From assembly GCA_030390025.1 (NCBI GenBank), contig CM059430.1, forward strand, positions 153,450,001 to 153,514,000: a stretch of DNA of 64,000 bases, written 5' to 3'. A program made the translations under genes and the position numbers. The notes beneath the pieces were generated by a model, which was not told the origin of the DNA, did not search any database, and saw nothing but the letters and a program-made list of their open reading frames with translations. This DNA comes from Squalus acanthias. Taxonomy: Eukaryota. This document shows, in pieces, positions 10,401 to 61,625 of this stretch (positions are counted from its first letter, which is position 1; the number at the start of each line of letters is the position of its first letter).

Positions 10401-13400
10401 CAAGAATACAATTTATCTGGGTTCAGGTGACATTGTAATTCTGCAGAGCTTCACTTTCATGGTTTAGGATAGCACCTGAACCTCTTAAGGTATTCCCGCC
10501 TTGTAGCACACCACAACCTATGTTTACTCATGAGTAAAGTAAATATTGTAGTGGGGGTACTGTACAGCAATGTAAGATTTTTATGGCATTTGTCTTGCAT
10601 GGTCCATGACTCAAGTGTTGATACTAGATGGACAAAATCGGGGGTGGGATGGGGGGAAATGGGTCTCCCATTCTTCAATGACTGACACCCAGAGGAGCAA
10701 AAAAATTACAAAAATATTTGGAGCGGTGAGGAATGGGATATAGCGGACAAAAATTATGTTTCTATAACCAGGCAAATATGAAAGGATGTTTCTCCTGCCC
10801 TCGATACATTGCGCATCTCCTGATTTATCAATGAGGATCATGTTTCATTCGTGCCAGCTGCTATTGGCCTGATGTTGCAGGCAAAGCTCTCGGCTGCTCT
10901 CGTTAATTGCCTTGCTTGGAGCATTACCGCCAGGAGGTTGCATGTAATATTGGGAGTTGGGAACCAGTGCAAGTGACTGAGGATCATCCTTTGAGCCATG
11001 TAAGGCATACAAGCGTTGTGTAAAGAGGATAGGGTAGAAAAGCCTTTAATTTACCTTGTGACTGCTAGTGTAACAACACTTTAATAGGGTAACCTCTTTA
11101 TTAAAATAGGACAATGGAATATATTAATATCCACAGTTGGTTTTTGAGTCGGCTGTCCTTGAATTTCTAAAATATTAACTAGGCACAAAAGAGCTTTTTC
11201 CACTTACCTCTGTGCTTCATTAATTAGAGACAGTTTTTTTCAGTTTTTGATGAATTGTCATTGGCGAAGCAAACCCCACTTTTGGACTCCCAATTTTGGA
11301 CTTGGGAAAAGGTTTGCAGCCATACCTCCAGGCCACTGACCCAGCACAATAAGAGGTGAATGATACACTGACAAGTTTACAGGTGCCTCCCTTTTTATAA
11401 TTGGGAGCAGTTTATTTATCTTTAACAAGTGTTCCTGCAGAATGACTTTGACACTGCAGTGTATGTCCCCATTTCCAGAGTGTTACCCATCCCCAATGAT
11501 TGTGATGACTTTTAGCTCTGCCCAAGTTTGAAATGGATATATAATATTTTGGTTAAATGTGTTTTTATTGAATTTGTGCTTGCAGTCTGTGTAAGTGGTA
11601 AAATTAAGTTTCTTTTGTTGTGTTGTTCAGGTTTTTGCATGCAATCTCTATTGAGTAGGTTTAGCAATACCTAGTTCCAATTTAAATCTTCTTCCACTTT
11701 GCCCCAATTAAATCTCAGTTTACAGCTAACGTGGGTTGAATTGTAGTTTTATGCAGTGGGCTCATGCCTGGTAGGTACTTGGTTGAACTGCACCAGACTC
11801 ATTTTACTTAACTTGTTTCAGGTGGCACAGAGTCGTGACCTTTTACTCCCATTGGTCTGAGCTGAATTCAAATCCAAATCCCAGATGTTAGAGTGTGCGC
11901 CCCACGGTCCTCTTGAACCTGTTCATTCAGCTACCAACATTTAAAAAATATTTTTTTAATGGTTTCATTTAGTTACGCTAACAAAATGTATTGAACATTT
12001 ATAATTATATTTCAAAAATGAGAAATAATTAGCATATTTGTGTTTTGTCCCAGAAACTGTGTTTGGTCGTACGCCATGCACATGTTGCACAACTCGCGCA
12101 GACTAGTGCAAGTACAGAGATGTGCAGTAGTGACCTCAAACGACTTCCACATTATTATGTGGATGATTTTTGAAAAAAAAATAACAACTTATTGAGGTTT
12201 TGTAAACATGCACACCCACAAATGTGCACACTCTCAAACGTGCACAGTCACAAACATCGGCTCAGTTTGTTTCAAACAATCTGTGTCTTTTGTTTGCAGA
12301 TGAGGCGCAGGAGTCTAAGAATGCGACGTCTCCGACTCCCTCTCCGACTCCCTCTCCCACGAAATTTGAAGTAAGTAAAGTTTTTTTTGTTTTGAATGAT
12401 CTTCCACCTACCACAAGAGTGGATTGAAGTGTGTTTTTTTTTGTTACCATTTTAACTCCACATTCAGTGTGCTTCCTCCCATGCTCCGGGTGCTAGCTGA
12501 ACAGTTGAGAGATTGAACTCTGAATGCCTGAGGTAAGTGCATCCATATTCCATTCATAACTTTACAAAAAAAAAATGGTTCCAGAATTAGAGAAAAGTTG
12601 CCATGGAAATTGGATGCACTCTGTACACTCCAGGCATATTGAGCATGTTATCAAAGGTCAAGAAATCAAATTTTATCATTTTTAAATCACCTAAGTCTTA
12701 ATCCTTTATTTTTGTTTTTGCTTTGTGTTACTCTACAGAATGTGAAATTTTGTTTCTGGTTTTGTGTAACAGCTACCTAAACATACTGGATACAAACAAA
12801 TGTAAGAAAGCATTGAACAAGAAAAGACTATATGGCTTATCAAGCTCACTTCCTCCACAGACCGTGTACAATCTGTCCTGTGATGGATTCCATGCCAGCA
12901 GTGTAATCATAAGAGGGAAAGTTCTGCAAAATATCGTATGGTCTCCAATGATAGTTGAATAAAACTCCACAGTTTCTGCCTTGTATTTGTATTACTCGTT
13001 CAAAAGTAGTCAGCTGCCCTCCACAGTCCCAGCACTGCAAGAACCACTCTGTTCCATGGAGCATTTGATTTATCTTTGTGCTTATCCTATCGTCAAACCC
13101 ATTATTAACCATTTATTTTATATAACTTTTATTTATTAAGGAGTTAATCAGCAAAGCATTGGTAAAAAGCAGTGTGAATGCTGAATATCTGAAATAAAAA
13201 CAAAAAAATGCTGGAAACGTACAGCAGGCCATTCAACATCTGAAAGAGAAAAATAGGTAAAGTTTCAGATTTGACTCTTCATCAGAACTGTGTATTTAAG
13301 CATATTTTGTTTGTATTTCAGTTTGTAAAGCATTAACTGCTTTTATTGGGAGTCTCTTGCACATATTCACTGCCCTGGGAAGAGGGAAATGACATTGAGC

Positions 13401-16400
13401 TGAAAATCTTAGTCCTCATAGTGTATTTCTTAGTTTTATTTATACCCAGAAATATTCCTTTTAAATGGGATGGAAGGTAATTCTGTGAGTAAATAGAAAT
13501 ATTCACAGGTACTTAATCAGAGTTCCTTCCTTACCTGCAGTTGTTTGAGGTTTACATTCTGAGTCCTTTTTTTAAACAATTCCTTCTAAACAATTGTTTG
13601 GTGCCCTGTGGAAGCGAAGAACTGGAGTGATAACAGACGGGGGAGGGGGTTTCTGGTCCTCTTCTGTCTGCTGTGTCGAATGGGGTCATTGTTTACTGGT
13701 CTTGTGGAAAGGATTGTAGCTGGATTTTGAGAGTGTTTGGGGTCCTTCACATTAAGGAGATAAAATCAGCAAGGGGAGAAGCCCAGTAACAGTTTAATAT
13801 TTCACCCATACAGCTGTAGGGTGGTTATAGATAAAATCGGTGCATGCCCCAATTATGAAATTGGGCTACCTTCAGACCATGATTGACTGTAAAATAATCG
13901 TTGATGTTCAGCCCAGTAAAGAGGAACAGTACTTTGTTGGGGGGGCTGGGCAGGAAAAGAGATACAGCATGTTGCTTATTGCAAAGATTTGAAATTATGG
14001 GTTGTTGTGTTCAAAGAACAACGAAATCTAATTTTGTGTTTAAAAGGTTGGAAGAATTCTAGAGTGGGATTCAGAATGTTGTGTGTGTTTTCAGTCATCA
14101 CCTTGTGATTTTGTTCATATAACTTCCAGTGACATTCCATATATTCTTTGGAGACTGGCAATGTCTTTTATCAATGTATTTTTTCCCCCCATTTTATCCC
14201 TCTTAACCCATTCTGGGGTTCAGTTTTGTGATTGTGAGCAGCTCTCTGGTACCTCACGCAGTGGCCATTCTTCATGTGCAAGCTTGGGCAGTGAATGTGA
14301 GGGGGACAGCACAGCACAACCAGATTCTGTCGTCTCTTCCGATGACCCCACAGGTACACTTGAGCAGGCGTCACTAGATAGTAATTCGGAACAGAACCGT
14401 GGCTGTGATTTACGAGGGGGTGAGGGAGGCTTCTTCTTCTTGTGGCCCCACTGCCACACTGGCTGAGATTAGCTGACTCAACACAGACCAAGAATTCAAC
14501 CTGGAAACTTTCTTGTCTGTATGATCAGTTTCACATGTGATCTATTAATCCACTTGGGGTAAAGTAGTTCATTGTTCAGAATTAATTCTTCCAGTAATGT
14601 GGTAACTGCTGTATATTTCTAATTTTAAAATGTTCCTTATTAGGCATCTGTACAGACTCGGTCATCAAAACAACCACCACCTCCGCCGCCGCCACCACCT
14701 TCACCGCCATCTCCACCTCCTGTGACACTGAAGAATAAGGCTATACTGTGTAAACCCTTGACTCAGAATAAGGGCATCTCCTGTAAACCCGAAATGAAGT
14801 CCAAAGGATGTCAAACAGGTAAATGGTTAAGATGAAGAGAAAACCGTTGATGCTAGAAATACATAGCCAATTTGGTTATTATTGGAAAAAGATGAATTAA
14901 ACTTTCAGGTGTGCCCTTTCGTTGGTTCTGAAACATTAATCCTGCTTTATTTTTAAGATGCTGATCAATCCGCTGTGCATTTCTTGTTCTTATTTGTTGA
15001 ATTTATTTTAAAAAACTGCAGAGAAACTGAGCTTTTAATCAACACTTAAATTGCTCCATCATATTGAGGATGTTTAGTACACATGTTGTTGTCGTCAGCT
15101 CCCCCTTCCCCCTTGCTTGTATGCTACTATTGCTGATAGCTGGTGAAGGCAGATGTGAGGGAACTTTATAGAAGTATCCTAGATACTAAGTAGAATTCAG
15201 AAAGTTAATCTTGAGTACTTACTCAAATAAAACCACAAGGACAGGGGATGTATATAAAACTGATTTAAAAAAAAAACAATTGAGTAGTGATTCATACCTG
15301 GATCTGTAGTCTGAGTAGGCTCTTCCTGCTTGTTCCCTTTTGTTATGGCCCCCATCTTTGCGCTCTCAAGTCCAAGAGGCACAGGCTAGAGCATAGCTGC
15401 CACACAACTGGTTTAACCATCAATCACCAAATCTGGCGAGACCACATCGAAGGTACGATAGTGTATTGGTGATACCAGACTAGTAATCCAGATGCTAGGA
15501 CTAATAATCCAGAGAATGAGAGTTCAAATCCCACCATGGCAGATTTAGAATATGAATTCGTTTTTTTAAAATCTTTAAATAAAAAGCTGGAACCAGTAAA
15601 AGTGACCATATAACTGTCGATTGTCATAAAAGCCCACTGGTTAACTAATAATATCCTATCAGGATGGTGTGTGACTTTGAGGTGGGGAGAATGGTGTTCC
15701 CATGCGCCTGCTGCCCTTGTCCTTCTAGGCAGTAGAGGTTGCGGGTTTAGGAGGTGCTTAAAAAAATAATGGCATATATCTGAATATTGGGGAAATTAGT
15801 TTATAAAGGTTTGAGAGGGGGCAAGGATTGCATTATATGTGGCTCTTAACTGCTTGTGGATTGCTTCAGTTAGAAAATAGCTTGTGATTTCAAGTTTTAA
15901 AAAGCAATTAAAACATTTCCCAGTAATTCTAAGAAATCAGGGATTTTATAAATCGGCAATAAAATTATAACTCTTGAACCCTTTTATAAAAAAAAAAAAA
16001 AAAAAATCTTGTTTAATTTTCTGTTTCAGAGGAGGAATGGAAGCCACAGCTAATTGTGGTACCCATCCCTGTGCCAGTCTTCATACCAGTGCCTTTGCAT
16101 ATGTATTGTCAAAACACACCAGTGCCTTTATCTATGCCAATCCCGGTAAGTTTTATGGCTTTTGTAGCTCATACTTAGCAAGAATCTTTGAGTCAAATGT
16201 GGCAATTTACTGGGTAGATATCATAAACGACCAGGTTCATGTTCATTTTTTTTAGGGCTGCATATTTAAGCTTGTGAATATGGTATAGAAAACATGCAAA
16301 TGATCATGTTATCAAATTTCTTGTTGGTTTACATTAGTTCTGATTGGCAAGTTGTTTTAATTTTGCAAGCTTTTTTGTCCGTGGAAGATTACTTTTCAGC

Positions 16401-19400: not shown

Positions 19401-22400
19401 TGGGTTGCCTTCTGCTGTAGTCCTTGTGCTAGTGATATTTCCCCCAATGGGAATTCCAGGATTTTGACCCAGTGACAATGAATGAATGCTGATATATATC
19501 CCATTCAGAATGACGTGAGATTTGGAAGGGAGCTTGACGTTCCTGTGGTCTTCCTGCTTTTTTTTTTTGGTAGCTAATATTTGTGTGCCTTCTTAACTCT
19601 GCGATCTCCCCAGCGTAGCATTTGTCTTTCAGTTGACTGAAATCCCAGTTGGCTGGGTTAATTGCTGAGTCATATGCATGCAAATTCAACAATCAGCTGA
19701 GAAATTTGGCTATTCTAATAGCATGCAAACAGTGGGGCAGTCAGTTCATCGGGAAAATTAGTTTCCACGGCAGCAACCTAATGGCTCTTACTAGATTGCA
19801 GTAATTCTTGCAATCTAAAGGTTTATTTTTTCCATAGGAGGCCAAAAAAACATATTATTTTCATATTTTTTCCACAACTTTGCTGTAAAAACTTTTTTGG
19901 AATTTCATGTAAATTATTAAATTTTTAATTTTTTTTAAAGTACATTTCATTTCTTTTATTTTCCAGCCCCGTTGGAACTTAATTCGGGTGTTGATTTCCT
20001 GTTTGACTGTGGGCTTGTGACAACAGATGAAGAACAGCCAGAATCTGAAATCCCACGAGCTGTCAGAAGGGTACGATTTATTTGAGAGTTTGTATGTGTG
20101 TTCAGCAGAGCCATGTGACTGCCGCGACAGTCAGTGGGTTCAAGTTGTGGCATTTTGGTCCTTTTTAAAAATAAATACAAAATAGTTGAGCTTTAACTCG
20201 GCAATCTTGCCATCAGTATCGCATGTGTTTTTTTTTAAAAAGCCCCACTCCCACCAGTGCTTGGTTGATAAATGCACTGCCAACTCAGAACTGAGCCACA
20301 GAAATTGGGAATGTTTGATCTCTGGTCTGTGGTGAGTTAGCTGATAGTTGAGGTGGTGATGGGACTACAATTACTTCAGTGTTCTGGGCCAGGGAGAGAG
20401 AAAATGGGCGAATGTGGCTGCTCCTGATTTCTAAACGTTGGCCCCTACTGGATAGTGGATGTGTGTAAAAGTAGTGCTTGAGGACCAAATCAAACTTGAC
20501 CTGGACTTCCTTCACAGTTGAATACAGGAAACTCTTTGGTATCCGGCACCTACGGGACTGGGATGGTGCCGGTTTATTAAAAATTCCGGATAACGGAGAT
20601 GTATACCTACCAAGGTACGAGAGCCCCGGTTACACGGCCGCTTGTGCAGGAGCCCCGGTTACACGGCCGCTTGTGCAGGAGCCCCGGTTACACGGCCACT
20701 TGTGCAGGAGCCCCGGTTACACGGCCACTTGTGCAGGAGTCCCGGTTACACGGCCACAGATCCAGGAGCCCCGGTTACACGGCCACTTGTGCAGGAGTCC
20801 CGGTTACACGACCACTTGTGCAGGAGTCCCGGTTACACGGCCACTTATGCAGGAGCCCCGGTTACACGGCCACTTGTGCAGGAGCCCCGGTTACACGGCC
20901 ACTTGTGCAGGAGTCCCGGTTACACGGCCACAGATCCAGGAGCCCCGGTTACACGGCCACTTGTGCAGGAGTCCCGGTTACACGGCCACTTGTGCAGGAG
21001 TCCCGGTTACACGGCCACTTGTGCAGGAGCCCCGGTTACACGGCCACTTGTGCAGGAGCCCCGGTTACACGGCCACTAATATACAGTAAAACTTACCTGA
21101 ACCTACTCCTGAATTTTGCTGGTTAATAGAGAATTCCGGATATTTAGGTGCCGTTTAAACGAGAGTTTCCTGTTGATCAAAGCCACTCACTGCTTTGTTT
21201 CACACGTGAAGAATGACCACTTGGATCAGATACTGAAGGGGGCTGAAACTTGTGAAACTGTACCCCAGTGTGAGTAATTGCTTTTGTGTGGAAAATGTGT
21301 TAAATTAGAGCCATTTAAAAAAAAAAAGAGATTTTTCATTCTCTGAATTAAGTGGGGAAAAGAGAAGGGGGACAATTCGAAGACACGAAGAGGTTTTCAG
21401 GAGAAGGGAGCAAATTCGCTTTGCCATAAAGAAAGACTTGATTTTGGTGTTTTTATTTTTGTTTTTCCCCTTGTAGGGTCAGAAGCGGATAATGCTTTCA
21501 GAAAGCTGTTCACGTGATTCTCTTGCTAGTCAACAGTGCTGTACTGGATTAAATTACTCATATGGAGTGAATGCCTGGAAGTCCTGGGTCCAGGCTAAAT
21601 ATGCCAGTGGCGATACCAGTAAAAGTGAAGAGCTCAGGTTTGGACGTAAGTGTGTGGTTTTGTTTTATTTCCTTTTGATCGTGATGGTGTGTACCTTTTT
21701 ATTTATTTTTTTCCTCCTTTAGTAGTCTGTTTGGGCAAGACCACTGGCCAAATCGCTCTGTCCACAGCTCTGCCAGTTCTGGAGAGTTATCCATTACAGC
21801 TGCAGGAAAGCAGTCCTGGACTAACTAGCACTCTTTTTGATCCGTTTCCAAGTGAATGTGGGCCACAGTGCAAAAACTGCCCCATATATGACGTTAGTTG
21901 GCATTGGATTGGAAATCTCACTTGGATTGCCATAGAATTGGAAATCTCACTTGGATTGCCATAGGACAGCTTAAGTGTTAAATGGAGAAATGTCACGGGT
22001 ACAGTAGGGAATAATTGCCTGAGGTTGGGGTGTTCACTTTTACACTTGACCTGGGAGTGATTGCTGATGTTAGGTGCCAAGAATGAGGACACAACAGCTA
22101 TTGCCGTGACAAGTTTAAAAAAAAAAAAAAAATCAACAAAAAATAAAGTTTTTTTAAATACATTACTTTGTTTGGAAAAGCATCCACTATTAACCTGGAT
22201 TGAGTTTAAAAAAAAATCAATAAATGATTGATTGTTGTATACATTCTTTGCAGCAGTCTCCGCTTTGTGGCTGTGATGTCCTGTACAGTTGAACTGCTTG
22301 TTGACACTCCCTGTCCAGGTTCATAAATTAAGACTGGACAGTTAAGGTAGCAGCAGGCTCCCATCACCTGTGGCAGCCATGGTCACTGCCTTGAGAGGAG

Positions 22401-25400
22401 AAAATTGGGGAGAACAAGATAGACAGCTACCAAAACATTTGGGCTGCTGCAACATTTTTTGAAGAATAGAAGTTTATTGATTTGTAATCTTTTTTTTTAA
22501 ATTTTCAGGTACTTGGTATATCTTGAGTGAAATACACATCCACAATATTAACCTTCCAGTGCATTTTGCAGTGGGGAGGGAAAGTACATGTGTGAAGTAT
22601 TTTGTGAATTGCTCCCCCAGGCCACAGTTTTAAAAAAACAACTTATTTCTCCAAATGTGGGTGATGGCAAGGTGGCATTTATTGCCCATCCCTAGTCTCT
22701 GAGAAGGTGGTGGTGAGCCACAGCATTCCTTATATTGATGATGCTCCCACAATGGTGTTTAGTAGAGATTTCCAGGATATTGGTCCAGCGATAATGGAGC
22801 AATGGTGATGTATGTCCAAGTTAGGATAGTGTCCCACAACATTGCTGCTCTTGATCTCCGTGGTAGAGGTCATAAGGGAGGGAGATATTGTCAAAATAAA
22901 CTTGATGTTGTTGCAGTGCATCGTCGGAGCTTCTTTAGTGTTGTGGTTGCACCCATCTAGGCAGCTGGTGTATGTTCCATCATACTCCTGACTTGAGCCT
23001 TCTAGATGGTGGAGAAGCTTTGTGGGGACAGGAAGTGAGCCAATTGTTGCAGAGTGCCCAGCCTCTGCCCTGCTCTTGTAGCTACCATTTATATATGGCT
23101 GGCTTTTAATTTGGGGCTGCGGTAAATATCTTTTCAGACTCGAGGGTGTCAGTCACTCCCTTAAGCCACCTAATCCCCTTCAGATGGTTCAAGTTAACAC
23201 TGGGTGAGGTTTGGTTGAATTGTCAGCTGCTTTATTCGAAAGTAGGTAAAACCCACAAAACAATGAGATTTATGAGAGTTGCTTAATACAATTGCCATAA
23301 CAGATTGAGATTCGGCTGGGGTGCCTGTGGGCACTTGGTGGTGGTGTTTTTGTACAGAGCCATTGCTTTATGCTGACTGAAGAAGTCTGACTCCCTTTTT
23401 ATTATGTGTAATTCTGGGATTTTTAACTGATGTTTTGGGGTTGGGGAGGGGTGGGGGCGGAAGGGTGCAGAGTGGGGCTTGAATTCTGCAAATCCATCTA
23501 TTTTTCCTGTTCTTCCCCTATCAGCTAAACCTGTGGCTCCTGTGGAGCAGTAGCCCAGTAAGGAGTCAGTACCTTCATGGGGAGAGAAGACAGTGGGGGG
23601 AGCGCAGATGTCAGATCTTTTGGCATTGCAACCTTGGAACCACTTGTTTGCTCCATTTTATAAAATTTTTATTTCTGTTCTTCCCCTATCAGCTAAACCG
23701 ATGAGGATTAAAGAGGATATTTTATCCTGCACTGCTGCAGAACTAAACTACGGGCTGGCCCAATTTGTTAAAGAAATACAGAGGCCCAACGGAGAGCGTT
23801 ACGAGCCGGATAGCGTTTACTACTTGTGTCTCGGAATTCAACAGGTTTGTTTAAGTTCAGATTTGGATGAGCTGAGTCAGCATGTTACTTTTGCTGTACA
23901 GTATATCTAGGAATGGCAGAATGCCAGCATTTTGCCGACGCACCATTGTATAGTGAGTTGCTGATCTAGGTCGCATGCTGTCGGGTGAGTCCACAAAGGG
24001 ACTTGAGGTTCATCTTCCACTGGGAAGGAGGGAGTTACTGAAGCTATTTCTCTCTCCCTCCCCCCCCCCATAGCAAAATTTTGCTGATTTCATGTTGAAT
24101 ATTGCGATTGTTATTGGTCTGCTTTTAAAAGCAGAGAATAAGATGTAAATGTGAATGATTTTGAGGCATACTGGTTCGGACGTCCTAGCATTGAGCATCT
24201 TCTGCTGACGGCTTGCTCCCTTACCACCGCTAATGTTGCTCTCTGCTAGCCACTCTGGAGTGGATGAGAGCAGCCCAATGAAGTCAATGAATTTTCTCTC
24301 CAGTCTCTTACTCAGGCTTTTGTGGGAGACTTGGCCAGATGCATTAATGCTGATCAACTTGCAGTCAAGTGTAAAAATAAAACTCAACCCTAATTGATAG
24401 TATATTGCTTATACACATCACTCTGTCAAAATCAGAAGAATTCTGGTTGAAATATTAAGATCACTTTGGTGTTACCTAGGTTTTCGAATTGAACTGATTG
24501 CAAGATGGGTTCAGGCGAAGAAGGCTGTTCAGGTCATTCACTGTCATCCTGCCACAATAAAGACCCTGCAGTCTTTCCATTGTAGCACTTAGCCTTTTCT
24601 TAAGAGTCTATTGTCATGGCCGTAACCACTGGAGTTACATCAAGTTAGTTACCACAAGTGGCTGTTAAGGCAGAAGCTGTCCCTTCATTTAAAAAAAAAG
24701 GAATTGGATAAAGAGTAAGAATGAATTTAGAGTAGATGGCACCAATTTTTATGTAGCACATAAGGTTAAGGGTTGGGATTGTACCACTAGCTCTGAGTGC
24801 TCTAAAAGTAACTGAAATGACCATCAGTCCTTTTATAAATCCTCTGTCGTAAAAAAATCTCTCTTGCATCTTTGTTTCAGTTATTCATTGTAAGACATTA
24901 GTATCTTTTTGTTTCCCAGTTGCTTGAGAATTAAAATAACGAATATGCTTTGAAATAGAGTATGGCTATACTCTACACAAGCTTTTATGGGAGCAATATT
25001 AGCAGGCTGAGAAGCACTTGGGGGTATAGCTCAGTGGTAGAGCATTTGACTGCAGATCAAGAGGTCCCTGGTTCAAATCCGGGTGCCCCCTCAAAAAGTT
25101 TTTTTTGTTTAAAAACAAATTCAATTATTCAGTTAATTTATCTTCAGTAATTTTCAATGTTTTCATCTTGAAAATTAAGGTCATGTTCTTTAATTTATCA
25201 TGGTTTCTACTAATTTTTTTGAAACTTTTTCGCATTGACTTTTGTTTTTGCTTTTGTCATTCTGCCTTTTTGGTGCCCCTCCACTAGAGGGAGCAGTGAC
25301 CTAAGAAATCTGAGTGCTTTCAACTGGAGATTCATCTATTTGCTGGTATAAACATAATCAGATGTAGTTTTAGATTGGGAACCGTCATAGCTTTTTAACT

Positions 25401-44927: not shown

Positions 44928-45913
44928 AATATGCGGTAGCGCTGCATACTTAAGATCTTCTGCATTAACAGAAAAACATCACACTGACAGTTCCACATAG
45001 TTCAGGCTAAGCTAATTCAAATTATATGTATTCAACTATCGCAAGTACATAATCGGTGTATAATATAACAAATTGTTTTGACATACTTCAAGTCTGTTTT
45101 AATACATTATTATGCCATACACAGGGTCTAGTCACCATTGAGTAACTTGGCCAAAGTGACTCCGACCTGCAACAGAAGTGTCTAAACTGACTTAAAGAAC
45201 CAGCTAAATCTTATCAGTTAACTCCAAGTTCAGGCAGCATCTGGTTACAGAATTGCCAATTGGAATCAGAATTGCCAATTGGAATCGGAACAAGTACACG
45301 GCGGCAGCATTACGGGTTAATTTTTTTTTCATTTATGGGATGTGGGCGTCGCTGGCAAGGGCCAACATTTATTGCCCATCCCTAATTGCCCTTGAGAAGG
45401 TGGTGGTGAGCCGCCGCCTTGAACCGCTGCAGTCTGTGTGGTGAAGGTACTCCCACAGGTTAATGAGCAACATTATCCATTGTCTGTGGTACCAAGAAAT
45501 GCTAATACTGACTCAATGAGCATCTGTCCTGTCCTACAAAAATGGCATCTGGTTATTACCAGGTCAAACAATGTGGTCTGCTTTTCTCTCATCATCTGAT
45601 CCTGTTTTAACTGGTAGTATGGAGAGGAAAAAATAGCTTTCATTTTAACATTAGCCAGTGTTAAAATCACTTGGCTATTCTCTGTAAAGGTAATTAATGA
45701 CTAAAGGAAGAAGTATATATCATGATCTTATGATTCAAAATAGGATTGGCCCCCTTGCTCTGTCACTTGATAGACAGGTGGCTTGCTCACTGGCTTCCAC
45801 TACAGGTGGTCAGCTGGCCACTGAGAGGCATGCAACAATAGCCTAAAGAGACATTTTTCATTCACCACCGCTATTGTAGGGAGGCATCTGGCTTCTGTTC
45901 AGCATCTCCTGAT

Positions 45914-48300
45914 AACATAAGAAATAGGAGCAGGAGTAGGCCATTTGGCCCTTCGAGCCTGCTCCGCCATTCAATAAGATCATGGCTGATCTTCTACCTC
46001 ATTTCACTTTCCTGCACCATCCCCATATCCCTTGATTCCCTTAATATTCAAAAATCTATCCATCTCTGACTTGAATATACTCAACAACTGAGCCTCCACA
46101 GCCCTCTGGGGTAGAGAATTCCAAAGATTCACCACCCTCTGTGAAGAAATTTCTCATCTCAGTCCTAAATGGACAACCCTTTATTCTGAGACTGTGACCC
46201 CTGGTTCTGGACTCCCCAGTCAGGGGAAACATCCTCCCTGCATCTACCCTGTCAAGCCCTGTAAGAGTTTTGTGTGTTTCAATGAGATCCCCTCTCATTC
46301 TTCCAAACTAGGCCTAGTCTACTCAATCTATCCTCATAGGACAATCCCTCCATTCCAGGAACCAGTATGGTGAACCTTCGATGCACTCCCTCTATGGCAA
46401 GTATATCCTTCCTTAGGTAAGGAGACCAAAACTGTACACAGTACTCCAGGTGTTGTCTCACCAGGGCCCTATATAATTGCAGTAAGACATCATTACTCTT
46501 ATACTCTCATCCTTTTGTAATAAAGGCCAACATACAATTTTTCCTAATTGCTTGCTGTACCTGCATGTTAACTTTCAGTGATTCGTGTACAAGGACACCC
46601 AGGTCCCTCTGAACACCAACATTTCCCAATCTCTCACCATTTAAAAAATACACTGCTTTTCTATTTTTCCTACCAAAGTGGATGACTTCACATTTCTCCA
46701 CATTATATTCCATTTGCCATTTTCTTGCCCACTCACTTAGCCTGTCTATATCCCCCTGAAGCTTCCTTGCATCCTCCTTGCAACTTATATTGCCACCCAC
46801 CTTTGTATCATCAGCAAACTTGGATATATTACATTTGGTCCCCTCATCCAAATCATTGACATAGATTGTGAATAGCTGAGGCCCAAGCACTGATCCTTGC
46901 GGTACCCCAATAGTTACAGCCTGCCAACCTGAAAATGACCCGTTTATTCCTACTCTCTGTTTTCTGTCCACTAACCAATCCTCAATCCATGCTAGTATAT
47001 TACCCGCAATCCCATGAGCCCTAATTTTGTTTAATAACCTCTTGTGTGGCACCTTATCGAATGCCTTCTGAAAATCCAAATACACCACATCCACTGGTTC
47101 CCCCTTATCTATTCTGCTAGTTACAACCTCAAAAAACTCAACAGATTTGTCAAACATGTTTTCCCCTTCATAAATCATGTTGACTGCCCAATCCTATTAT
47201 TTTCTAAGTGCCCTGTTACCATGTCCTTAATAATTCTAGCATTTTCCCCTACTGCTGATGTCAGGCTAACTGGTCTGTAGTTCCCTGTTTTCTCTCTCTT
47301 TTCTTAAATAATGGAGTTACATTTGCTACCTTCCAATCCCCAGGAACCGTTCTAGAATCAATGGAATTTTGGAAAATGACAACCAATTCATCCACTATCT
47401 CTATAGCCACCGCTTTCAAAACCCTAGGATGTAGGCCATCAGGTCCAGGGATTTATCAGCTTTCAGTCCCATTAGTTTCTCCAGTACTATATTTTTTTTA
47501 CTAATTTCTTTCAGTTCCTTATTCTCACTAGACCCTTGGTTCTCCACTATTTCCAGGAAGTTTTTTGCGTCTTTTTCCATGAAGACAGACACAAAGTATT
47601 TGTTTGATTTCTCTGCCATTTTCTTATTCCCCATTATAATTTCTCCTTTGTCAGCCTGTAAGGGACCCACATTTACTTTCACTAATCTTTTCCTTTTTAC
47701 ATACCTATAGAAGCTTTTACAGTCTGTTTTTATGTCTCTTGCTAGTTTACTCTCATTCTATTTTCCCTTTATCAATTTCTTGGTCATCCTTTGCTGAATT
47801 TTAAAATCCTCCCAATCCTCAGGCTTACTACTCTTTTTGGCAGCATTATAAGCCTCTTCCTTTGATCTAATACTATCTTTAACTTCTCTTGTTAGCCACG
47901 GTTGGACCACTTTTCCTGTGGGGTTTTTGTGCATTAAAGGAATGTATATTTGTTGTAAATTATTTATTAATTCTTTAAATGCTTGCGTACCATCATACCT
48001 TTTAATGTCGTTTCCCAATCTACCTTAGCCAACTCACCCCTCATACCTACGTAGTTTGCTTTGTTTAGATTTAAGATCCCAGTTTTGGATTTAACTTAAA
48101 TCACTTTCAAACTCTATAAAATTCTATCATATCGTCACTCTTCCCTAAAGGCCCCTTTACTACAAGGTTATTAATTAACCCTTTCTCGTTGCACAATACT
48201 AGATCTAAAATAGCCTGTTTCCTAGTTGGTTCTTCAACATACTGATCTAGAAAACTATCTTGCATACATTCCATGAATTCGTCCTCCACACTATTACTGC
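45914..48300 (-). mobile_element. CR1 LINE, 5'-truncated, with disrupted ORF2 (reverse transcriptase)
   Basis: VDVVYLDFQKAFDKVPH...GVPQGSVLGPQLFTIYVNDL...SKFADDTK; endonuclease-proximal ILDLVLCNE; 3' tail ...cctgctcctatttcttatgtt. Confidence 0.95.
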
Positions 48301-51300
48301 AAATAGTGGGGAGGATGAATTCCTGGCAACACAACTGAGGTAACGCTACAGATTTGAAGAGTAGGAAAAAAATGCCGATGCAGCCCACTATGTCATGGCA
48401 CTGTATGTTGATTTTCCTATAACCTGTACAACTCCAAGCATTTATAATTTTCTTTGCTTTTAAAGAGATCCTCGCTGAAAGACCTTCCTTTTTAAAATGT
48501 TTTTGTCTCCCATTAACCCAACTTCAGTTGTTCGAAAGAAAGCACAAAACCTAACACTAATAAAACCAGCTTGAGTTTCCACAGCACACTAGTTTGTGGC
48601 ACAGCACAGTGTTAGGAAATGATTTGACAAGTGGCTCTGCAGCCAGCATACAGTGCGATGTCATCAGATGTTTACACTGACCTCGCTATTAATAGCAACA
48701 GAATGATTCAAATTTCACCATGATTTTGGGTACAACCAATTCATTTGTCAATCCAGTTAGTTTAACTGAAATAAATTGTGGAAATGATCTCATAAATGAA
48801 ATACATCAATGTGAACCTAATTGTGACACTGACTTACTTGAGGATTTTATTCCTCTCTTTGTTAGTATTCTTATTTTCTTGGTTGTTGATGTGTGGAGAA
48901 AGATGATATGTAATTGTATGGAGGTTTCGGTGCCTCCTCCAATGGAGTGTTTTTATTCTTTCCTGAAGGTGGTGATTTATGCTGAGGTCCAGATCCTTGG
49001 AAGCCAGCCTCTTGACAACTGTCCATTCTTCATGTGTGAGCCCAGATAGTGAATAACAGCAATCTCTTCTACTGGGGAGATGTCGCCGTCAATCCCAAAC
49101 ATATCTTCATCCATATCTACATGTACACTTTCCTGCAAGGGCGTAACACAAAAATGAGGAGCAGGGACCTTGGCTCACGTTTTCATCCTAACTCAGGCAT
49201 GCTGAGGCCAGTGACAGTGTCTGCCATTGGAGTGGCTGCGATCAGCTAACTGAATAGAAACCAGTGATTGAGCCAGAGATTGCTAGTCTGTGTGGCTTAG
49301 TACCACCCTGCGTGGTGCACTAACACACTAAGCCAGCAGGAGATAGGAGGGGTGATTTCTGACCAGAAACTCTTAATTAAGAATTGTGGTACTCTATTAC
49401 ATTAATTTGGCTCAGTTAGTTGGAGTTTCTTCTATTTTCACCTGCTTGCTAATTTGAAGAGAGAGAGGGGTTTATTAAGGGATAAGGTAACGGGAGAAAA
49501 CTAACTTGTCCATCTGGTGATGCATCATGCCATCTGCTTGTGGCTCCTCTCCTATCATAGTTGGAAGGAAGATTTTTGGTGGATGTACAATCTATATTGA
49601 AAGAAAATATGGGAAGGCTGAGGAAAGCATAAATAAAATAATTTTAAATGATTAAACACTACCACATACCTGCATCCCAGAATTCCTGTACTTCTGGCTG
49701 AAGAAGGTATTAAATCCTACTGATGACTTGCTTGGGGTATTAGCTCAATCCATTGTGTACCATTGACCTTTGGTGATGTGCACCTTGTTAATCAGCAACT
49801 TTCAGTATGTGGGTCAATGTGTATTTATATCGGAGGTGTAGACTGATAAGTAAATCTTCAGGCAATAAACTTTTGTTTTTGTTTATATAATGTGATTAGA
49901 AGAAAGGTTTGTAATGTGTTACTTAGTCCACATTAAAAAGGAGCGCACTAATGTTAACTATGTATAAAAATTGTGAAATGCATAACATCAGTGATTTGTA
50001 TTTAGTTTTCCATCTGCTAAAGATTTGAATATTAATTATTTTGCTAAAATCATCCCGTTGAAACTGTCTCATCTCAACCTTGGGTTTAACATTGTTTTGA
50101 AATTTATATTGCTGGTATATAACCACCAATGACTTTTTATAGATATATATTTAAAAAAAACTAGACTCTTGACATATGGAATGAATATATGTTCATTTAA
50201 AAAAAAATCTTGATGTTTGTTGGAATAAATGGCTCCTGTGTGGGTGGCATTGTGGTATCTGAACCGGAGTAGCAGTGTCTTTGGATATTGTTTTAAAACC
50301 AAAATAAAATTACATTTAGTTGAACACGTTGGGAAACATTGGGTTTGATTTTAACACCTCACCCAGCAGTTTTCTAAGTAATCTAACTCCATCTCTCCAA
50401 CAGTTCAGGAAGCAGCATTTTTTTAAAATAGCAATGCACGACAGGTTGATCAGCACCCGAAAGATAAAAGGTAGATTAACATTTCAGGTGCAACCTTTCA
50501 CCTTTTTTGGATTCGTGAATAATTCAGTTAAGAGTTTTAATTTCATATCACTGACTCCGTTCGTTGTTGTCTCATCATGGAAATTGCTGTATCGTATGAT
50601 AAAATAACTTTAAATGCCAGGCTGTCCAGCTGGGTTGGTTAACTGGGCAATTCGGATAAGTACTGTATAGATGGATACTAGTAGGCTCGCATAATTTCTG
50701 ATTATGGGGAACCGGACTGGATGAAGGTTTCCCTCTCTCCTTGGAGGGCTAGCTCAGAAGAATATCAAAAATCTGAGGAAAAATTACCTCCAGTGGACAT
50801 ATTTGGGAGCCACAGGGAAAGTTGCTGGGATTATTACCGTCTGGAAAAGCTGCTGGAAATAGGGCAAGAGTAGGCAAAGAATGTGGCTCGACGATGCTCT
50901 GGAATGGGCAGGGGTAACGTTGGGGGCCGATGCAATTGACGTGAGCAAGATTGGAATGTACTAATTGTCAACCTGCAGAGCAGAGATGGCACACCTGAAG
51001 CTATTGAGAATGTTGATATTTCGAATTACCTCCTTTTTCTCTTTTAGAGGTTCCCCGCGCCTTCTCTGGTTGTCAGGCTGGCTGAATATAACCTGCCTGT
51101 TGGCCTCTGCCGAAATTCTTGGTCTCTGTTCTACCCTTTTGACACAGCTGGCATTGGAAACTCATAGGGAATTGCAGACGAGAATCCCTAACTGACCACC
51201 ATGTGTGGCATTGGAACTTCTGTTATCACCCTTCACTGCTATAGATAACATCTGATCTGGTTCATTAAAGGTTCTCTTGCATTCAATATACTGCGATGTG

Positions 51301-54931: not shown

Positions 54932-55200
54932 CATAGGAACAGGAGCAGACCATTCAGCCCCTTGAGTCTGTTCAGCCATTCAATTAGATCATGGCTGATC
55001 TCTACCTCAACTCCATTCGGCTCCTTTGATACATATCTCTTACCTAACAAAAATCTATCAATCTCAGTCTTGAAAATTTCAATTGACCCAGCATCTACAG
55101 CTTTTTGGGAGCGAGAGCTTGGGATTTCCACCTCCCCTTGTGTGAAAAAAGTGCTTCCTGACTGCACTCCTAAATGGCCTACCTCTAATTTTAAGATTAT
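54932..55200 (-). mobile_element. CR1 LINE 3' end fragment
   Basis: Reverse-complement tail cataggaacaggagcagaccattcagcccc; FKTEIDRFLL. Confidence 0.85.
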
Positions 55201-55796
55201 GGACTTTCAAGAGACATTTGATAATGTGCCACATAATAGACTTGTTAGCAAAATTGAAGTCCATGGGATTAAAGGAGCAGTGGCAGCATGGATAAGAAAT
55301 TGGCTGAGAGACAGAAAGCAGAGAGTAGCGGTGAACGATTGATTATCAGACTGGAGAGAAGTATAGAGTGGTGTCCCCCAGGGGTCGGTATTAGGACCAC
55401 TGCTCTTTTTGACATATATGAGTGACCTGGACCTGGGCATAGGCGGCATAATTTCAAAGTTTGCAGATGACACAAAACTTGGAAATGCAGTAAGCAGTGA
55501 GGAGGATAGTAACAGACTTCAGGAGAACATCGACAGACTGGTGAAATGGGCAGACACATGCAGATGAAATTTAACGCAGAGGAGTGTGAAATGATAGATT
55601 TTGGAGGCAAGAATGAGGAGAGGCAATATAAACTAAATGGAACAATTTTAAAGGGGATGCTGGAACAGAGGGACCTGGGAGTTCACATACACAAATCTTT
55701 GAAGGTGGCAGGACAAGTTGAGAAGGCTGTTTAAAAAAAAAAGCATACGGGATCCTTGACTTTATTAATAGAAGAATAGAGAACAAAAGCAAGGAA

Positions 55797-55994
55797 TGAT
55801 GCGGAGATGCCGGTGTTGGACTGGGGTGGATAAAAGTGAAAAGTCGCACAACACCAGGTTATAGTCCAACAGCTTTATTTGAAATCACAAGCTTTCGGAG
55901 CGCTGCTCCTTCACCTGACGAAGGAGCAGCGCTCCGAAAGCTTGTGATTTCAAATAAAGCTGTTGGACTATAACCTGGTGTTGTGTGATTTCTC
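55797..55994. mobile_element. Penelope-like inverted terminal-repeat insertion
   Basis: Perfect 66-bp inverted repeat 55847-55912 / 55920-55985; 14-bp TSD acaaaagcaaggaa (55783-55796, 55995-56008). Confidence 0.85.
55911..55947 (+). ncRNA. Minimal type I hammerhead ribozyme motif
   Basis: Stem I UCAC/GUGA, core CUGACGA(+A), stem II GGAGC/GCUCC, GAAA, palindromic AGCU stem III, CUU cleavage triplet. Confidence 0.7.
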
Positions 55995-58900
55995 ACAAAA
56001 GCAAGGAAGTTATGCTAAACTGTTATAAATCACTGGTTGGACCTCAGCTAGAGTATTGTGGCCAATTTTGGGCACCACACTTTAGGAAGGATGTCAAGAC
56101 CTTGGAGAGCGTGCAGAGGAGATTTACTACAATGGTATGAGGGACTTCAGTTTGATGGAGAGACTGGAGAAGCTGGGCTGGTTCTCCTTCGAGCAGAGAA
56201 GGTTAAGGGGAGATTTACTAGAGATGTTCAAAGTTATGTAGGGTTTTGGTGGAGTAGATAGGGAGAAACTGTTTCCACTGGCAGGAGGGTCAGTAACCAG
56301 AGGACACAGATTTAAGATAATTGGCAAAAGAACCAGGGGGGAAAGAGAAGAATATTTTTTTTTTTTACACCGGAATGCACTGCCTGAAAGGGTGGTGGAA
56401 GCAGATTCAATAGTAACTTTCAAAAGGGAATTCGATATATACTTGTAAAGGGGAAGATTGCAGAGCTATGGGGAAAGAGGAGAAGAGTGGGACTAATTGC
56501 ATAGCTTTCAAAGAGCTGGCACAGGTGTAATGGGCCAAATAGCAGCCTTCTGTGCTGTATGATTCTAGGTCACTTTGGCCAAAGTTATTTTATGATCAAT
56601 TGATTTATCTATAATTTTTTAAAATTCAAAGTACTGTTATTAACGGCTGGGTGGTTGCTTGAAATATCTCTTTTTAAAATTTATTCGTTCATGGGATGTG
56701 GGCGTCGCTGGCAAGGCCGGCATTTATTGCCCATCCCTAATTGCCCTGGAGAAGGTGGTGGTGAGCCGCTGCCTTGAACCGCTGCAGTCCTTGTGGTGAA
56801 GTTACTCCCACAGTGCTGACTTTGTCGTAGCGGTTTGGTACAACTGAGTGTCTTGCTGGGCCATTTCAGAGGGCAGTTAAGAGTCAACCACATTGCTGTG
56901 GGTCTGGACCAGGTAAGGACAGCAGATTTCCTTCCCTAAAGGACATTAGTGAACCAGATGGTGGGATTTGAACTCACGTCTCCAGATTATTAGTTCAGGA
57001 CTCTGAATTACTAGTCCAGTAACATAACCATTATGCTACTGTCTGTTTAATCTCATTAGGACATAGCCTTCAACTTTTTACTTGAAAGTCACTTTTGTAG
57101 CTATTGTGTGACAGCACTGTGGTCTCTGAATAAGATCTCCTGTGCTAATGTTTTTCAGGGAATCCAGTGGCATAATGTATTGATGCTCTGTTGAACTATG
57201 CCATGCAAGATAGGACATGGGTTCATATCGTGATTCTTGATATCAACCAGACCATCTGTGGAAAACAAGCACCAAATGAAGCTCCTTAAAGAGATGAAGG
57301 GATAGTCAACTCCAATCATTGTATTCAGCATCGGTGAAGCCTGAGAGCTGCTCTCCAATGGCCCATTGGTGTTCCCATTGGCCTGTGAATGAGCTGCTAG
57401 CTCACATCAACAGCAGCAAAGACAAATGGCCCACAGAAAACCCTGAAAATGATTCTTCTCCCTGAAAAATAGAGCATATGTGTAGTTCATTGAAGGGGAA
57501 ATGAACACACTCTTTTAAAAAAAAACTACATGAGGAGAAATTTTAAAATGCAACAGAACTGAGAATTTTAGAGAAAGCTCAACTTTAATCATGGGACGAC
57601 AATGTTAACATTTGAACCAATTGCTTAAAGTCGTTAAAATGACTATCACCAAATGAAAGGGATATTGTCTTTTAAATCTATGCTGACATATGTGCCACAT
57701 GACAATGTGAACAAGCCTTTCATAAACCATTTCATTGTCCCTCAGGTTCCTCGTGCTGTGAAGTAATGGTCTCCATCTGACTTATAGATTGTTCTTTAGT
57801 TATGGTAACAGTTGTGTTATTTTTGCCCCAAACAGCATTAGCTAACAAACCTCCTTTTGCTGGGAGATCCTTATTTTGTAAATATTTTTCCCATGTATTG
57901 AACTGGAAAACATATCCATAACTATAAAAAGATGTTTCTGCGGACAGTAATGCACTATGGCAATGCTTAATACTCCATTGTATTATGCTTTAAAGTGGTA
58001 GAAGACAGTCTGTAGGGTGTACTCTTAATCTCAGCCATCTGGTCTGGTGGTGCAAGGCATTGGTTGCAGATTAGGCAACTTCTCTACAGGGAGGGAAAAG
58101 GGAGTCTGAGCAAGAGCAATGCTAGTGGGGGCTTAGGAGCAGGTCACCTAACAGCCTTAGTAAGGATTGATGTGTGGTTTGAAGAAATTGAAAGAGGAGA
58201 CAGTAAAAAATAAAAATACTTTAAAGCGAAGGCTGAAACATGGAAGTATGCCTTCCCTACTCCTCCAAATTTGGAAAAGAAAAAGTTAAAAGGGTATGGG
58301 GAAAGGGTAGAGGGAATGAAGCTAAGCAGATAGCTCTTTTAGAGAGCCAACACAGATGCATTGGGCCAAATGACCTCTTTCTGTGCTGTAATAGTCTATG
58401 TTTCTATAAATCCTTAATAATGGGAACTATATTACCAAAATTTAGCAATTGAAATAAAAAGAAAAGAAACATGAAAAGCGGATTGGTTACCCACACAATT
58501 TAACATTTGGGTGCCCAACGATAATTGTAAACATAGTTTTATAAAAAAACATTGCAATAAAAGTGGCTATTTAAACTACACTGCTGAATTGCAGAAAAGC
58601 CGAACTAGGTAAAACTAGAATTCTGGCAGCACTGACGAAGACTCATCGACAGCTGAGACTCATTTTTTGAAATTAGTGGCTGTTGTTGGATGAACGCAGA
58701 CTTGTCAAAGTTACCTGGATGACTAAGTTATGCTGTCTGAGTAGAAAGGAGTAGTGCAGGGTCACTAAGAGGACCATTCTTATCAAGTCAAAGTCTCTTT
58801 TTTTTGAATTAGGCAGCTGGCAAGCGAATCGCGATTGAAGATCAGGCCGCTGCTGCTGCTCCTCCCGGCTCCACAATCAGGTAAGTATTTTGAAAAACTT

Positions 58901-59720: not shown

Positions 59721-61625
59721 GTTATAATACAGCAGATATACATAGCTTAAATTACTGTTCACGACAGTGTGAAACCATTTTTGCAAATATAATTTTGTTT
59801 AACATCAGTATTGCAGTTTAAAAAATATTTTTGTCTGATACATATTTTATTAAATTTGAAGCTGGGCTCGTTGTTGGCACAATATAGGTAAATATACTGC
59901 CCAGTGGTACTGAGCCATACATATCAGGAAGGTTCAAGTTCAAGATTCAATCTGTGAGCCATCCTGTGTTAGCTGCTCCACTGATCCAGTGCTCACTTTG
60001 TGAGTGTTGCAATTGACAACAGTGTCCAGGGCTAAGAAGTTTTCCCACTCCTGATTGCTGTCCAGTGATTTGTGAGGCTTCACCCTTGAAGTCCCTCATG
60101 GTTGTACGTGTGAGGGAATTCAAATGTGCCATTTTCATTTTAGCTGTTCACACTGGAAGGCTCCCTGGGGATATGCAATTGATCTGAAGGTGACTTCCTG
60201 TTAACTTAGAAACGATATTTTAAAAAATATTCGTTCACGGAATGTGGGCGTCATTGGCAGTGCCATCATTTATTGCCCATACCTACTTGCCCTTAAGAAG
60301 GTGGCGGTGAACCGCCTTCTTGAATGGCTGCAGTCCGTGTTGTCGGAGTTTGGTACAACTAGGCCATTTCAGAGGGCAGTTAAGAGTCAACCATATTGCT
60401 GGTGGTCTGGAGTCACATGCAGGCCAGACCGGGTAAGGACGGCAGATTTCCTTCCCTAAAGGACATTAGTGAACCAGGTGGGTTTTTACGACAATCCGAT
60501 AGTTTCATGGTCGCCATTACTGATACTAGCTTTTTCTTTAATTCCAGAATTAATTAACTGAATTTAAATTCCTCAGCTGCTGTGGTGGGATTTGAACTCA
60601 TGTCTCTCCGGATATTTAGTCCAGGCCTCTGGATTATAGTCCAGTAACGTAACCACTATGCTACCGATAAAAAGAACCTTCAGTTCCCAAGTTGACAGGT
60701 TGGGACTTCCACAAGTTGTTGTCCAATTCCAACCATGCTATGCACACAATACAAATGTCTCAAGATATGCTGTTTGCATTTTTCTAAAGCTCCAGAAGGT
60801 TCTACAATTGTGCCATGCCTTCTAAATGTAGCAAACTAATACTGTTCTGCAATGAATTCATTGCACAAGTGTAAATCAGTGGCAAGTTTTAAATGTGTCT
60901 TACTGTTCTTTATTCCATTCCTTTCACCCTAACTAACGGTTGGTTTACTGACTGGAAGTAATTCTGAAATACAAGCTTTTAAAACTTTGTACTCCTTGAG
61001 CACTACTCTCTAAAAGATGTTTATGCAGTTCCTCAGTTCTACAGGATTCTATTCCAAGTGCTGACGAGCTGCAGAAGGAATTTGGAGGAAAAATTCTCTT
61101 CAGGAATCTTGGGCCTACCAAAATTCCTGGACTAAATAAGAATAAAGTGCTTGTGTTAGCTCACACAGTGCCACGAGTAATACCTTCTGGAGCAAAAAGT
61201 GTTTGCATAACATTTTTTGGTGGGAAGAGATGAACTTAACAAAATGATGGGGGAAGTGATGACATTATTTCATACCAATCATACCTGTAATTGACATCAT
61301 GACAGAGTAAAGTTGCAGAAAAGTGGAATATGGACAAGTGCATTGCAAAATCAACCCTGGTGGGTATTGGGATGCAGAAAGACCCAGATCAACTTTGCAT
61401 GCCAGTTTTTTAACTTGATGAGTTATGCTGTATACCACTCTTCCAGACGGCCATATCCTTTTAATGTTATAATCTCACTTAGAATCCATAAACGGTCAAG
61501 TAGCGGGGACACAAGTTAAAATAAATTAACAATAAAAAAGTCAGGCAGAAGCTCTTTACACAACAGACGTGTGGAATAAATTACTGGGGAAAACCTTGTC
61601 ACGCAGGCAGTGTAAATGGGACAGT

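Follow-up and report, generated by a model that had tools for sequence, protein, structure and literature searches.

An intron of ZMYM3 carries its splice acceptor twice. A block of 25 nt, consisting of 18 nt of intron ending in AG and the first 7 nt of the exon, occurs at 23507-23531 and again at 23675-23699 of the window (the whole stretch of 64,000 nt that was analysed, to which all positions refer). The duplication is real and probably young, and it makes a plausible latent NMD micro-exon. The best reading, with a probability of about 0.5, is a recent template switch, primed by microhomology, that placed a copy of the acceptor ahead of an old SINE remnant in which a stop codon and a donor were already present. 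The features concerned are listed here.

21477..21645 (+): ZMYM3 coding exon before the intron, with a phase-1 end and the donor GAC/GTAAGT (tblastn with named shark ZMYM3 proteins)
21646..23692 (+): ZMYM3 intron carrying the duplication (gene model)
23506..23534 (+): span bracketed by CCTGT (23506-23510 and 23530-23534), a possible microhomology scar
23507..23531 (+): upstream 25-nt copy, AG at 23523-23524, probably the derived copy (exact repeat)
23525..23557 (+): candidate pseudoexon of 33 nt that keeps the frame, contains TAG (23551-23553) and is followed by the donor CCA/GTAAGG at 23558 (translation, splice scores)
23532..23590 (+): probable remnant, now decayed, of the 3' tail of an old SINE-like family of the window, source of the stop and donor (tail profile search)
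23591..23674 (+): unique spacer DNA, the last 60 nt AG-free, with TnA candidates, probably the native intron end
23675..23699 (+): downstream 25-nt copy, with the AG of the working acceptor at 23691-23692, running directly into the conserved exon
23693..23844 (+): true ZMYM3 exon of 152 nt, in the QRICH1 domain (shark protein matches, gene model)

The repeated acceptor and its place in ZMYM3

The two copies are identical at 25/25 positions, are maximal on both sides, and are separated by a spacer of 143 nt (168 nt from start to start). Local dinucleotide shuffling of the window, done 20 times, gave maximal exact direct repeats of 12-17 nt at distances of 30-1000 nt, so the repeat is not a product of chance. 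It was also the sole pair with a spacer of 2 nt to 2 kb in a census of the window's exact repeats of at least 16 nt, from which satellite and low-complexity rows had been removed. The acceptor duplication described in the initial annotation was therefore confirmed, being identical, non-extendable and beyond the shuffle maximum. A longer, old duplication around the copies was considered and dropped, as the DNA beyond them showed no significant similarity (p 0.12-0.66 for the upstream flanks, 0.83 for the downstream flanks). Minor local duplications are also present in the window, namely a perfect tandem duplication of 29 nt at 21908-21964, in the same intron as the 25-nt repeat, and a near-perfect tandem one of 19 nt at 45248-45290.

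The exon 3' of the downstream copy matches shark ZMYM3 at 98-100%, and the gene model comprises 14 exons from 1267 to 37416, whose 713-residue translation has a terminal stop only and shows 98.2% identity to two named shark proteins. These data bear out the assignment of the gene to ZMYM3 made beforehand. The gene is intact, and the downstream acceptor must therefore work. In the numbering of a shark ZMYM3 protein (P0006), the QRICH1 domain lies at 1081-1194 and DUF3504 at 1204-1373.

Some further features of the gene were recorded. The model uses a non-canonical GC donor at 17626/17627 (+), GTG/GCAAGT, with which the frame stays open. An exon of 71 nt at 12300-12370 (+), of low complexity and encoding Ser/Pro/Thr repeats, was missed by tblastn; it is found in two named shark proteins, and the region is skipped in one Pristiophorus isoform. 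ZMYM3 introns also hold a GC-rich minisatellite at 20621-21077 (29-nt unit, 15.8 copies, 93% matches) and, at 25020-25091 (+) on the same strand as the gene, an intact-looking tRNA-Cys(GCA) scoring 70.3 bits against Rfam and followed by a T8 run.

Splice signals and the candidate micro-exon

The initial annotation had proposed that the upstream AG opens a 33-nt phase-1/phase-1 segment reading PKPVAPVEQ and then TAG, followed by a GTAAGG donor; the phase is kept, and both the reading and the donor match the sequence. Splice signals were scored with crude matrices derived from ZMYM3's own 13 other acceptors and 13 donors. On the 13-site matrix the upstream acceptor scored 8.3 and the downstream one 9.6 (real ZMYM3 acceptors, 5.2-14.5), and the donor at 23558 scored 7.8 (real ZMYM3 donors, 0.7-11.3, leave-one-out). 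Equal or better scores were reached by 35 AGs and 16 GTs in 34,006 nt of intron, i.e. about 0.47 such donors per kb. Only two AG-GT pairs lying 20-300 nt apart in one intron had the candidate's scores, which places the 33-nt candidate among the best latent exons of ZMYM3; at thresholds relaxed by 1 and 2 bits there were 9 and 15 pairs, respectively. Both strict pairs use the 23558 donor, one being the 33-nt exon itself. The other is a second latent exon of 200 nt, at 23358-23557 (+), which also runs into an early stop.

A branch point of the form TnA is expected a short distance upstream of an acceptor. None was present at -17 to -40 of the upstream AG, the nearest being at -43, whereas 13/14 real ZMYM3 acceptors, and likewise 77/86 decoy AGs, have one in this interval. 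The candidate is also less than half as long as the shortest real internal exon of the gene (33 nt against 71 nt), and both properties count against use of the upstream AG. The downstream acceptor has TnA motifs at -33, -30 and -22 and is preceded by an AG-free stretch of 60 nt, a length reached at 2.9% of random intron positions. This branch-point and AG-exclusion context suggests that the downstream acceptor is in its native setting and that the upstream one is the new copy. The surroundings of the upstream copy are acceptor-like as well, with 79% pyrimidine and an AG-free zone of 50 nt.

Use of the upstream AG was translated with seven donor choices, giving exons of 8, 17, 25, 33, 44 and 68 nt and an extension of the true exon by 168 nt. 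All seven terminated prematurely, some at the TAG at 23551-23553 and the others at a stop reached through a frameshift; a further option, a 40-nt exon, contains the same TAG. The 33-nt form ends at about residue 1122 (P0006 numbering), inside QRICH1 and before DUF3504. Its TAG lies 650 nt ahead of the last junction, with 5 junctions downstream, and the established NMD rule (PMC8819188) sets the threshold for a stop at 50-55 nt before a junction; if the upstream AG is used, transcripts with the 33-nt segment are therefore expected to be removed by NMD. The consequence put forward in the initial annotation, truncation before DUF3504 or NMD, thus holds for this acceptor, whichever of the seven choices is made.

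The 168-nt extension was also considered as a notable open exon and rejected. It is in frame and contains one stop, and since 21% of random intron stretches have at most one stop in 56 codons, there is nothing special about it. It may resemble an extra segment of the paralogue ZMYM4.

The candidate peptide was present in 0/169 named ZMYM3 proteins (cluster representatives only, with 49 unnamed proteins left out), 11 of them from cartilaginous fishes. The exons are joined directly in 166 of the 169; two bird models are a few residues shorter, and one protein is without the motif. This absence is weak evidence, because NMD forms are rarely annotated as proteins. When the protein sets were queried with the exon together with 28 intron-derived residues, each of the 32 matches covered at most 71% of the query, and no match was obtained for a minus-strand frame of 124 residues that spans the left junction. 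Measurable use of the upstream AG in cells is predicted at somewhat less than even odds, and a regulated, conserved role for the micro-exon appears improbable. From its sequence, the 33-nt segment is best regarded as a candidate for a pseudoexon of a familiar type, which falls short of a demonstrated poison exon.

The spacer and the origin of the duplication

The window contains an old SINE-like family, about 320-400 nt long and ending in a purine-rich tail, of which at least 13 decayed, interspersed copies are present, including those at 33990-34300 (+), 48930-49340 (-), 14170-14420 (-) and about ten more; that its head is tRNA-like is a by-eye judgement. Other elements seen in the window were a tRNA-Thr call by ARAGORN at 56954-57045 (-), which Rfam did not call and which is probably a repeat-derived look-alike because it lies in a repeat common to 35278-35540 and 60399-60666, and open frames at 46507-47757 (-) and 55200-56400 that by eye look like fragments of a LINE reverse transcriptase.

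The 143-nt spacer had been said to resemble the 3' end of this family, and this is true, to a modest degree, of 23532-23590 and not of the other ~85 nt, which have no match elsewhere in the window. With a profile of the 3' tails of the 11 other copies in the window, 23535-23588 scored highest of all matches not used for training (11.6 bits, E 0.014), against 9.9 bits for the best of 20 shuffled windows, and it was kept in 10/11 leave-one-out builds and lost in one. A second profile of 9 copies, omitting two that were chosen partly by motif or by eye, ranked it first or second among outside matches in 6/6 builds (7.6-11.6 bits, E 0.012-0.29), each time above the best of 10 shuffles. The full-length family profile missed the spacer at E up to 10, and searches of the window with the spacer alone gave best other matches of E 0.23 (blastn) and E 1.7 (nhmmer). 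The likeness is therefore probably real but modest, and the same portion may correspond to the tail of a shark SINE.

Only the first ~57 nt of the spacer are SINE-like. The match starts about 3 nt or less from where the upstream copy stops and ends near 23588, some 85 nt short of the downstream copy; these ~85 nt also scored only 15-28 against the sequence that follows the tail in the 11 other copies (95th percentile of the null, 29), and they do not match the DNA preceding the upstream copy either (p 0.12-0.66). Neither end of the spacer has poly(A) or poly(T), and no SINE body was detectable upstream of the upstream copy, even with the 24-nt block sliced out. The spacer tail is identical to the profile consensus at 46/61 nt (75%; 63-79% for other family copies), a rough figure that overstates divergence, since the consensus was built from 11 decayed copies, and the tail could belong to a younger subfamily with members elsewhere in the genome. 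At the positions of the TAG and of the GTAAG of the pseudoexon, the tail differs from the consensus. A retrocopy of a structured RNA or snoRNA was considered and rejected, as no part of the spacer matched Rfam at the gathering score (3 chance-level matches, E 1.3-4.9) and it folds no better than shuffles (z -0.54 and +0.50).

A neutral 25-nt copy would remain unchanged with a probability of 0.0008 at 25% divergence, 0.017 at 15% and 0.07 at 10%, and the SINE remnant looks much older than the repeat. With a tail at 75% and a perfect 25-nt repeat, a single SINE retroposition is unlikely to have made both. The SINE insertion with a 25-nt target duplication favoured in the initial annotation was not upheld: the tail stops ~85 nt short of the downstream copy, there is no poly(A), and the tail is the older of the two.

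In the favoured account, the tail remnant of an old SINE-like element would have stood some 100-160 nt before the acceptor, and its decay would have brought TAG and GTAAG. A 3' end at a T-rich site near 23506 would then have primed, in the course of break repair or replication, on the similar T-rich acceptor 168 nt downstream, and about 25 nt would have been copied before a return to its own template, through Pol theta end joining or a replication switch. The downstream acceptor would have kept its native branch point, AG-free zone and exon, which would explain why the gene still works, and the copying of a real-grade AG to a site before the remnant would have created the latent 33-nt pseudoexon. 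If this form or a longer one were used, the protein would stop inside QRICH1 and the transcripts would be removed by NMD. The repeat, the intact gene, the stop and the scores are shown by the sequence; which event came first, by which repair pathway, and that the pseudoexon is little used are what we infer.

The bracket of microhomology measures 5 nt at the upstream copy and 1 nt at the downstream copy, and a bracket of at least 5 nt arose in 3.7-4.5% of 5000 random-flank trials (p about 0.04). Extra left-flank similarity amounts to 4/6 nt (p 0.08). These template-switch statistics are individually weak (p 0.03-0.1, several having been examined). Three weak clues suggest that the upstream copy is the newcomer: the CCTGT bracket, the branch-point and AG-free context of the downstream copy, and the missing branch motif of the upstream one. 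Short local duplications, perfect or nearly so (29 nt, 19 nt), are common in the window and fit an origin by local copying. On the other side, the SINE-like match has its 5' edge right at the junction, without a detectable body upstream, and a template switch can account for this only by coincidence or by a deletion that accompanied it.

That position, at the very end of the upstream copy and without a body upstream, is explained more simply by insertion, and it is the best clue for a rival account, which we consider rather unlikely overall. Here, in a modified form of the model in the initial annotation, a 143-nt fragment (an old SINE tail with 3' flank from elsewhere, or a read-through SINE transcript) would recently have entered at staggered nicks and left a 25-nt target-site duplication, making the upstream acceptor the native one. 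The repeat-spacer-repeat layout, the long pyrimidine tract and 50-nt AG-free zone of the upstream copy, and T runs at the end of the spacer agree with this, and entry of retroelements into 3' splice sites with target duplications is reported in PMC3219598. However, poly(A) and poly(T) are absent from both ends of the spacer, the tail of the element stops short of the downstream copy, and 25 nt is above the 7-20 bp given there as typical (PMC3219598). Moreover, the supposed native acceptor would have no canonical branch motif, the supposed foreign DNA would bring three of them together with a 60-nt AG-free run, and the cell would have had to skip its native acceptor from the start.

An old SINE insertion with a target duplication of ~110 nt, of which the upstream part decayed and 25 nt were kept by selection or gene conversion within a conserved, regulated poison exon, is improbable. 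It would account for the faint G-rich and then T-rich similarity upstream of both copies and for the scarcity of such latent exons (two pairs at the candidate's scores, with about 0.47 donors this good per kb), but the similarity is insignificant (p 0.12 at best), 9 pairs qualify once a 1-bit margin is allowed, and function does not call for letter-for-letter identity with the downstream acceptor; the lack of the peptide from the named ZMYM3 proteins is a weak point on the same side. Slightly less credible still is the birth of an exon in one step, in which the acceptor, copied before an old SINE tail already equipped with a donor and a stop, would have given an NMD micro-exon whose inclusion is measurable and tissue-dependent, which selection has maintained in this shark lineage, and which tunes the dose of ZMYM3, a chromatin regulator. 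An assembly or consensus artefact, the least credible of these, has in its favour that only one sequence was seen; against it, the spacer is unique, complex DNA without Ns, the repeat is short and non-tandem, and the surrounding gene model is intact over its 713 aa. The weights given to these origins are judgement and not computation.

Meaning and comparison with known systems

If the upstream AG is used, the locus is a natural competition between two acceptors with identical last 18 intronic and first 7 exonic bases. Because these 25 bases are shared, any preference for one acceptor must come from the branch point, exon definition or downstream enhancers. Use would also point to a route to new poison exons by the copying of a gene's own acceptor; if the AG is unused, the duplication is an ordinary tolerated mutation scar. 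A literature search, which covered few subscription papers, found no report of a ZMYM3 poison exon or of this locus. All the ingredients, i.e. templated or target-site duplications, SINE-derived pseudoexons and NMD, are already known.

PMC7165422 describes templated insertions in which 3-30 bp are the same as flanking DNA and states that single Pol theta synthesis tracts are rarely longer than 10 bp; PMC7407515 describes non-tandem duplications templated within 200 bp. Like such locally templated insertions (PMC7165422, PMC12426944, PMC7407515), the ZMYM3 repeat is a short block (within 3-30 bp) identical to nearby DNA, in direct orientation and with possible microhomology at the junctions. 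Unlike typical cases, it would represent the long end of the range, with a single tract of 25 nt and a template 168 nt away. It differs further in that the block copied is a splice acceptor.

The repeat-spacer-repeat arrangement at an acceptor, with SINE-like DNA in the spacer, recalls retroposons at 3' splice sites such as the Alu and L1 insertions in NF1. In contrast to the NF1 insertions, there is no poly(A), the repeat is longer than the 6-17 bp seen in those cases (PMC3219598), the tail of the element is 85 nt from the second repeat, and the element is apparently old. The tRNA-derived SINEs of sharks listed in PMC3747384 include V-SINE HE1 and the DeuSINE SacSINE1, with which the local family, interspersed and about 320-400 nt long, may be compared.

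Poison exons are described in PMC8819188 as conserved and alternatively spliced. The 33-nt candidate has in common with pseudoexons and poison exons an intronic AG and GT around a premature stop that precedes several junctions, and a body derived from a repeat. Unlike the acceptor of a pseudoexon that arises by point mutation, its acceptor duplicates the one that follows in the same gene.
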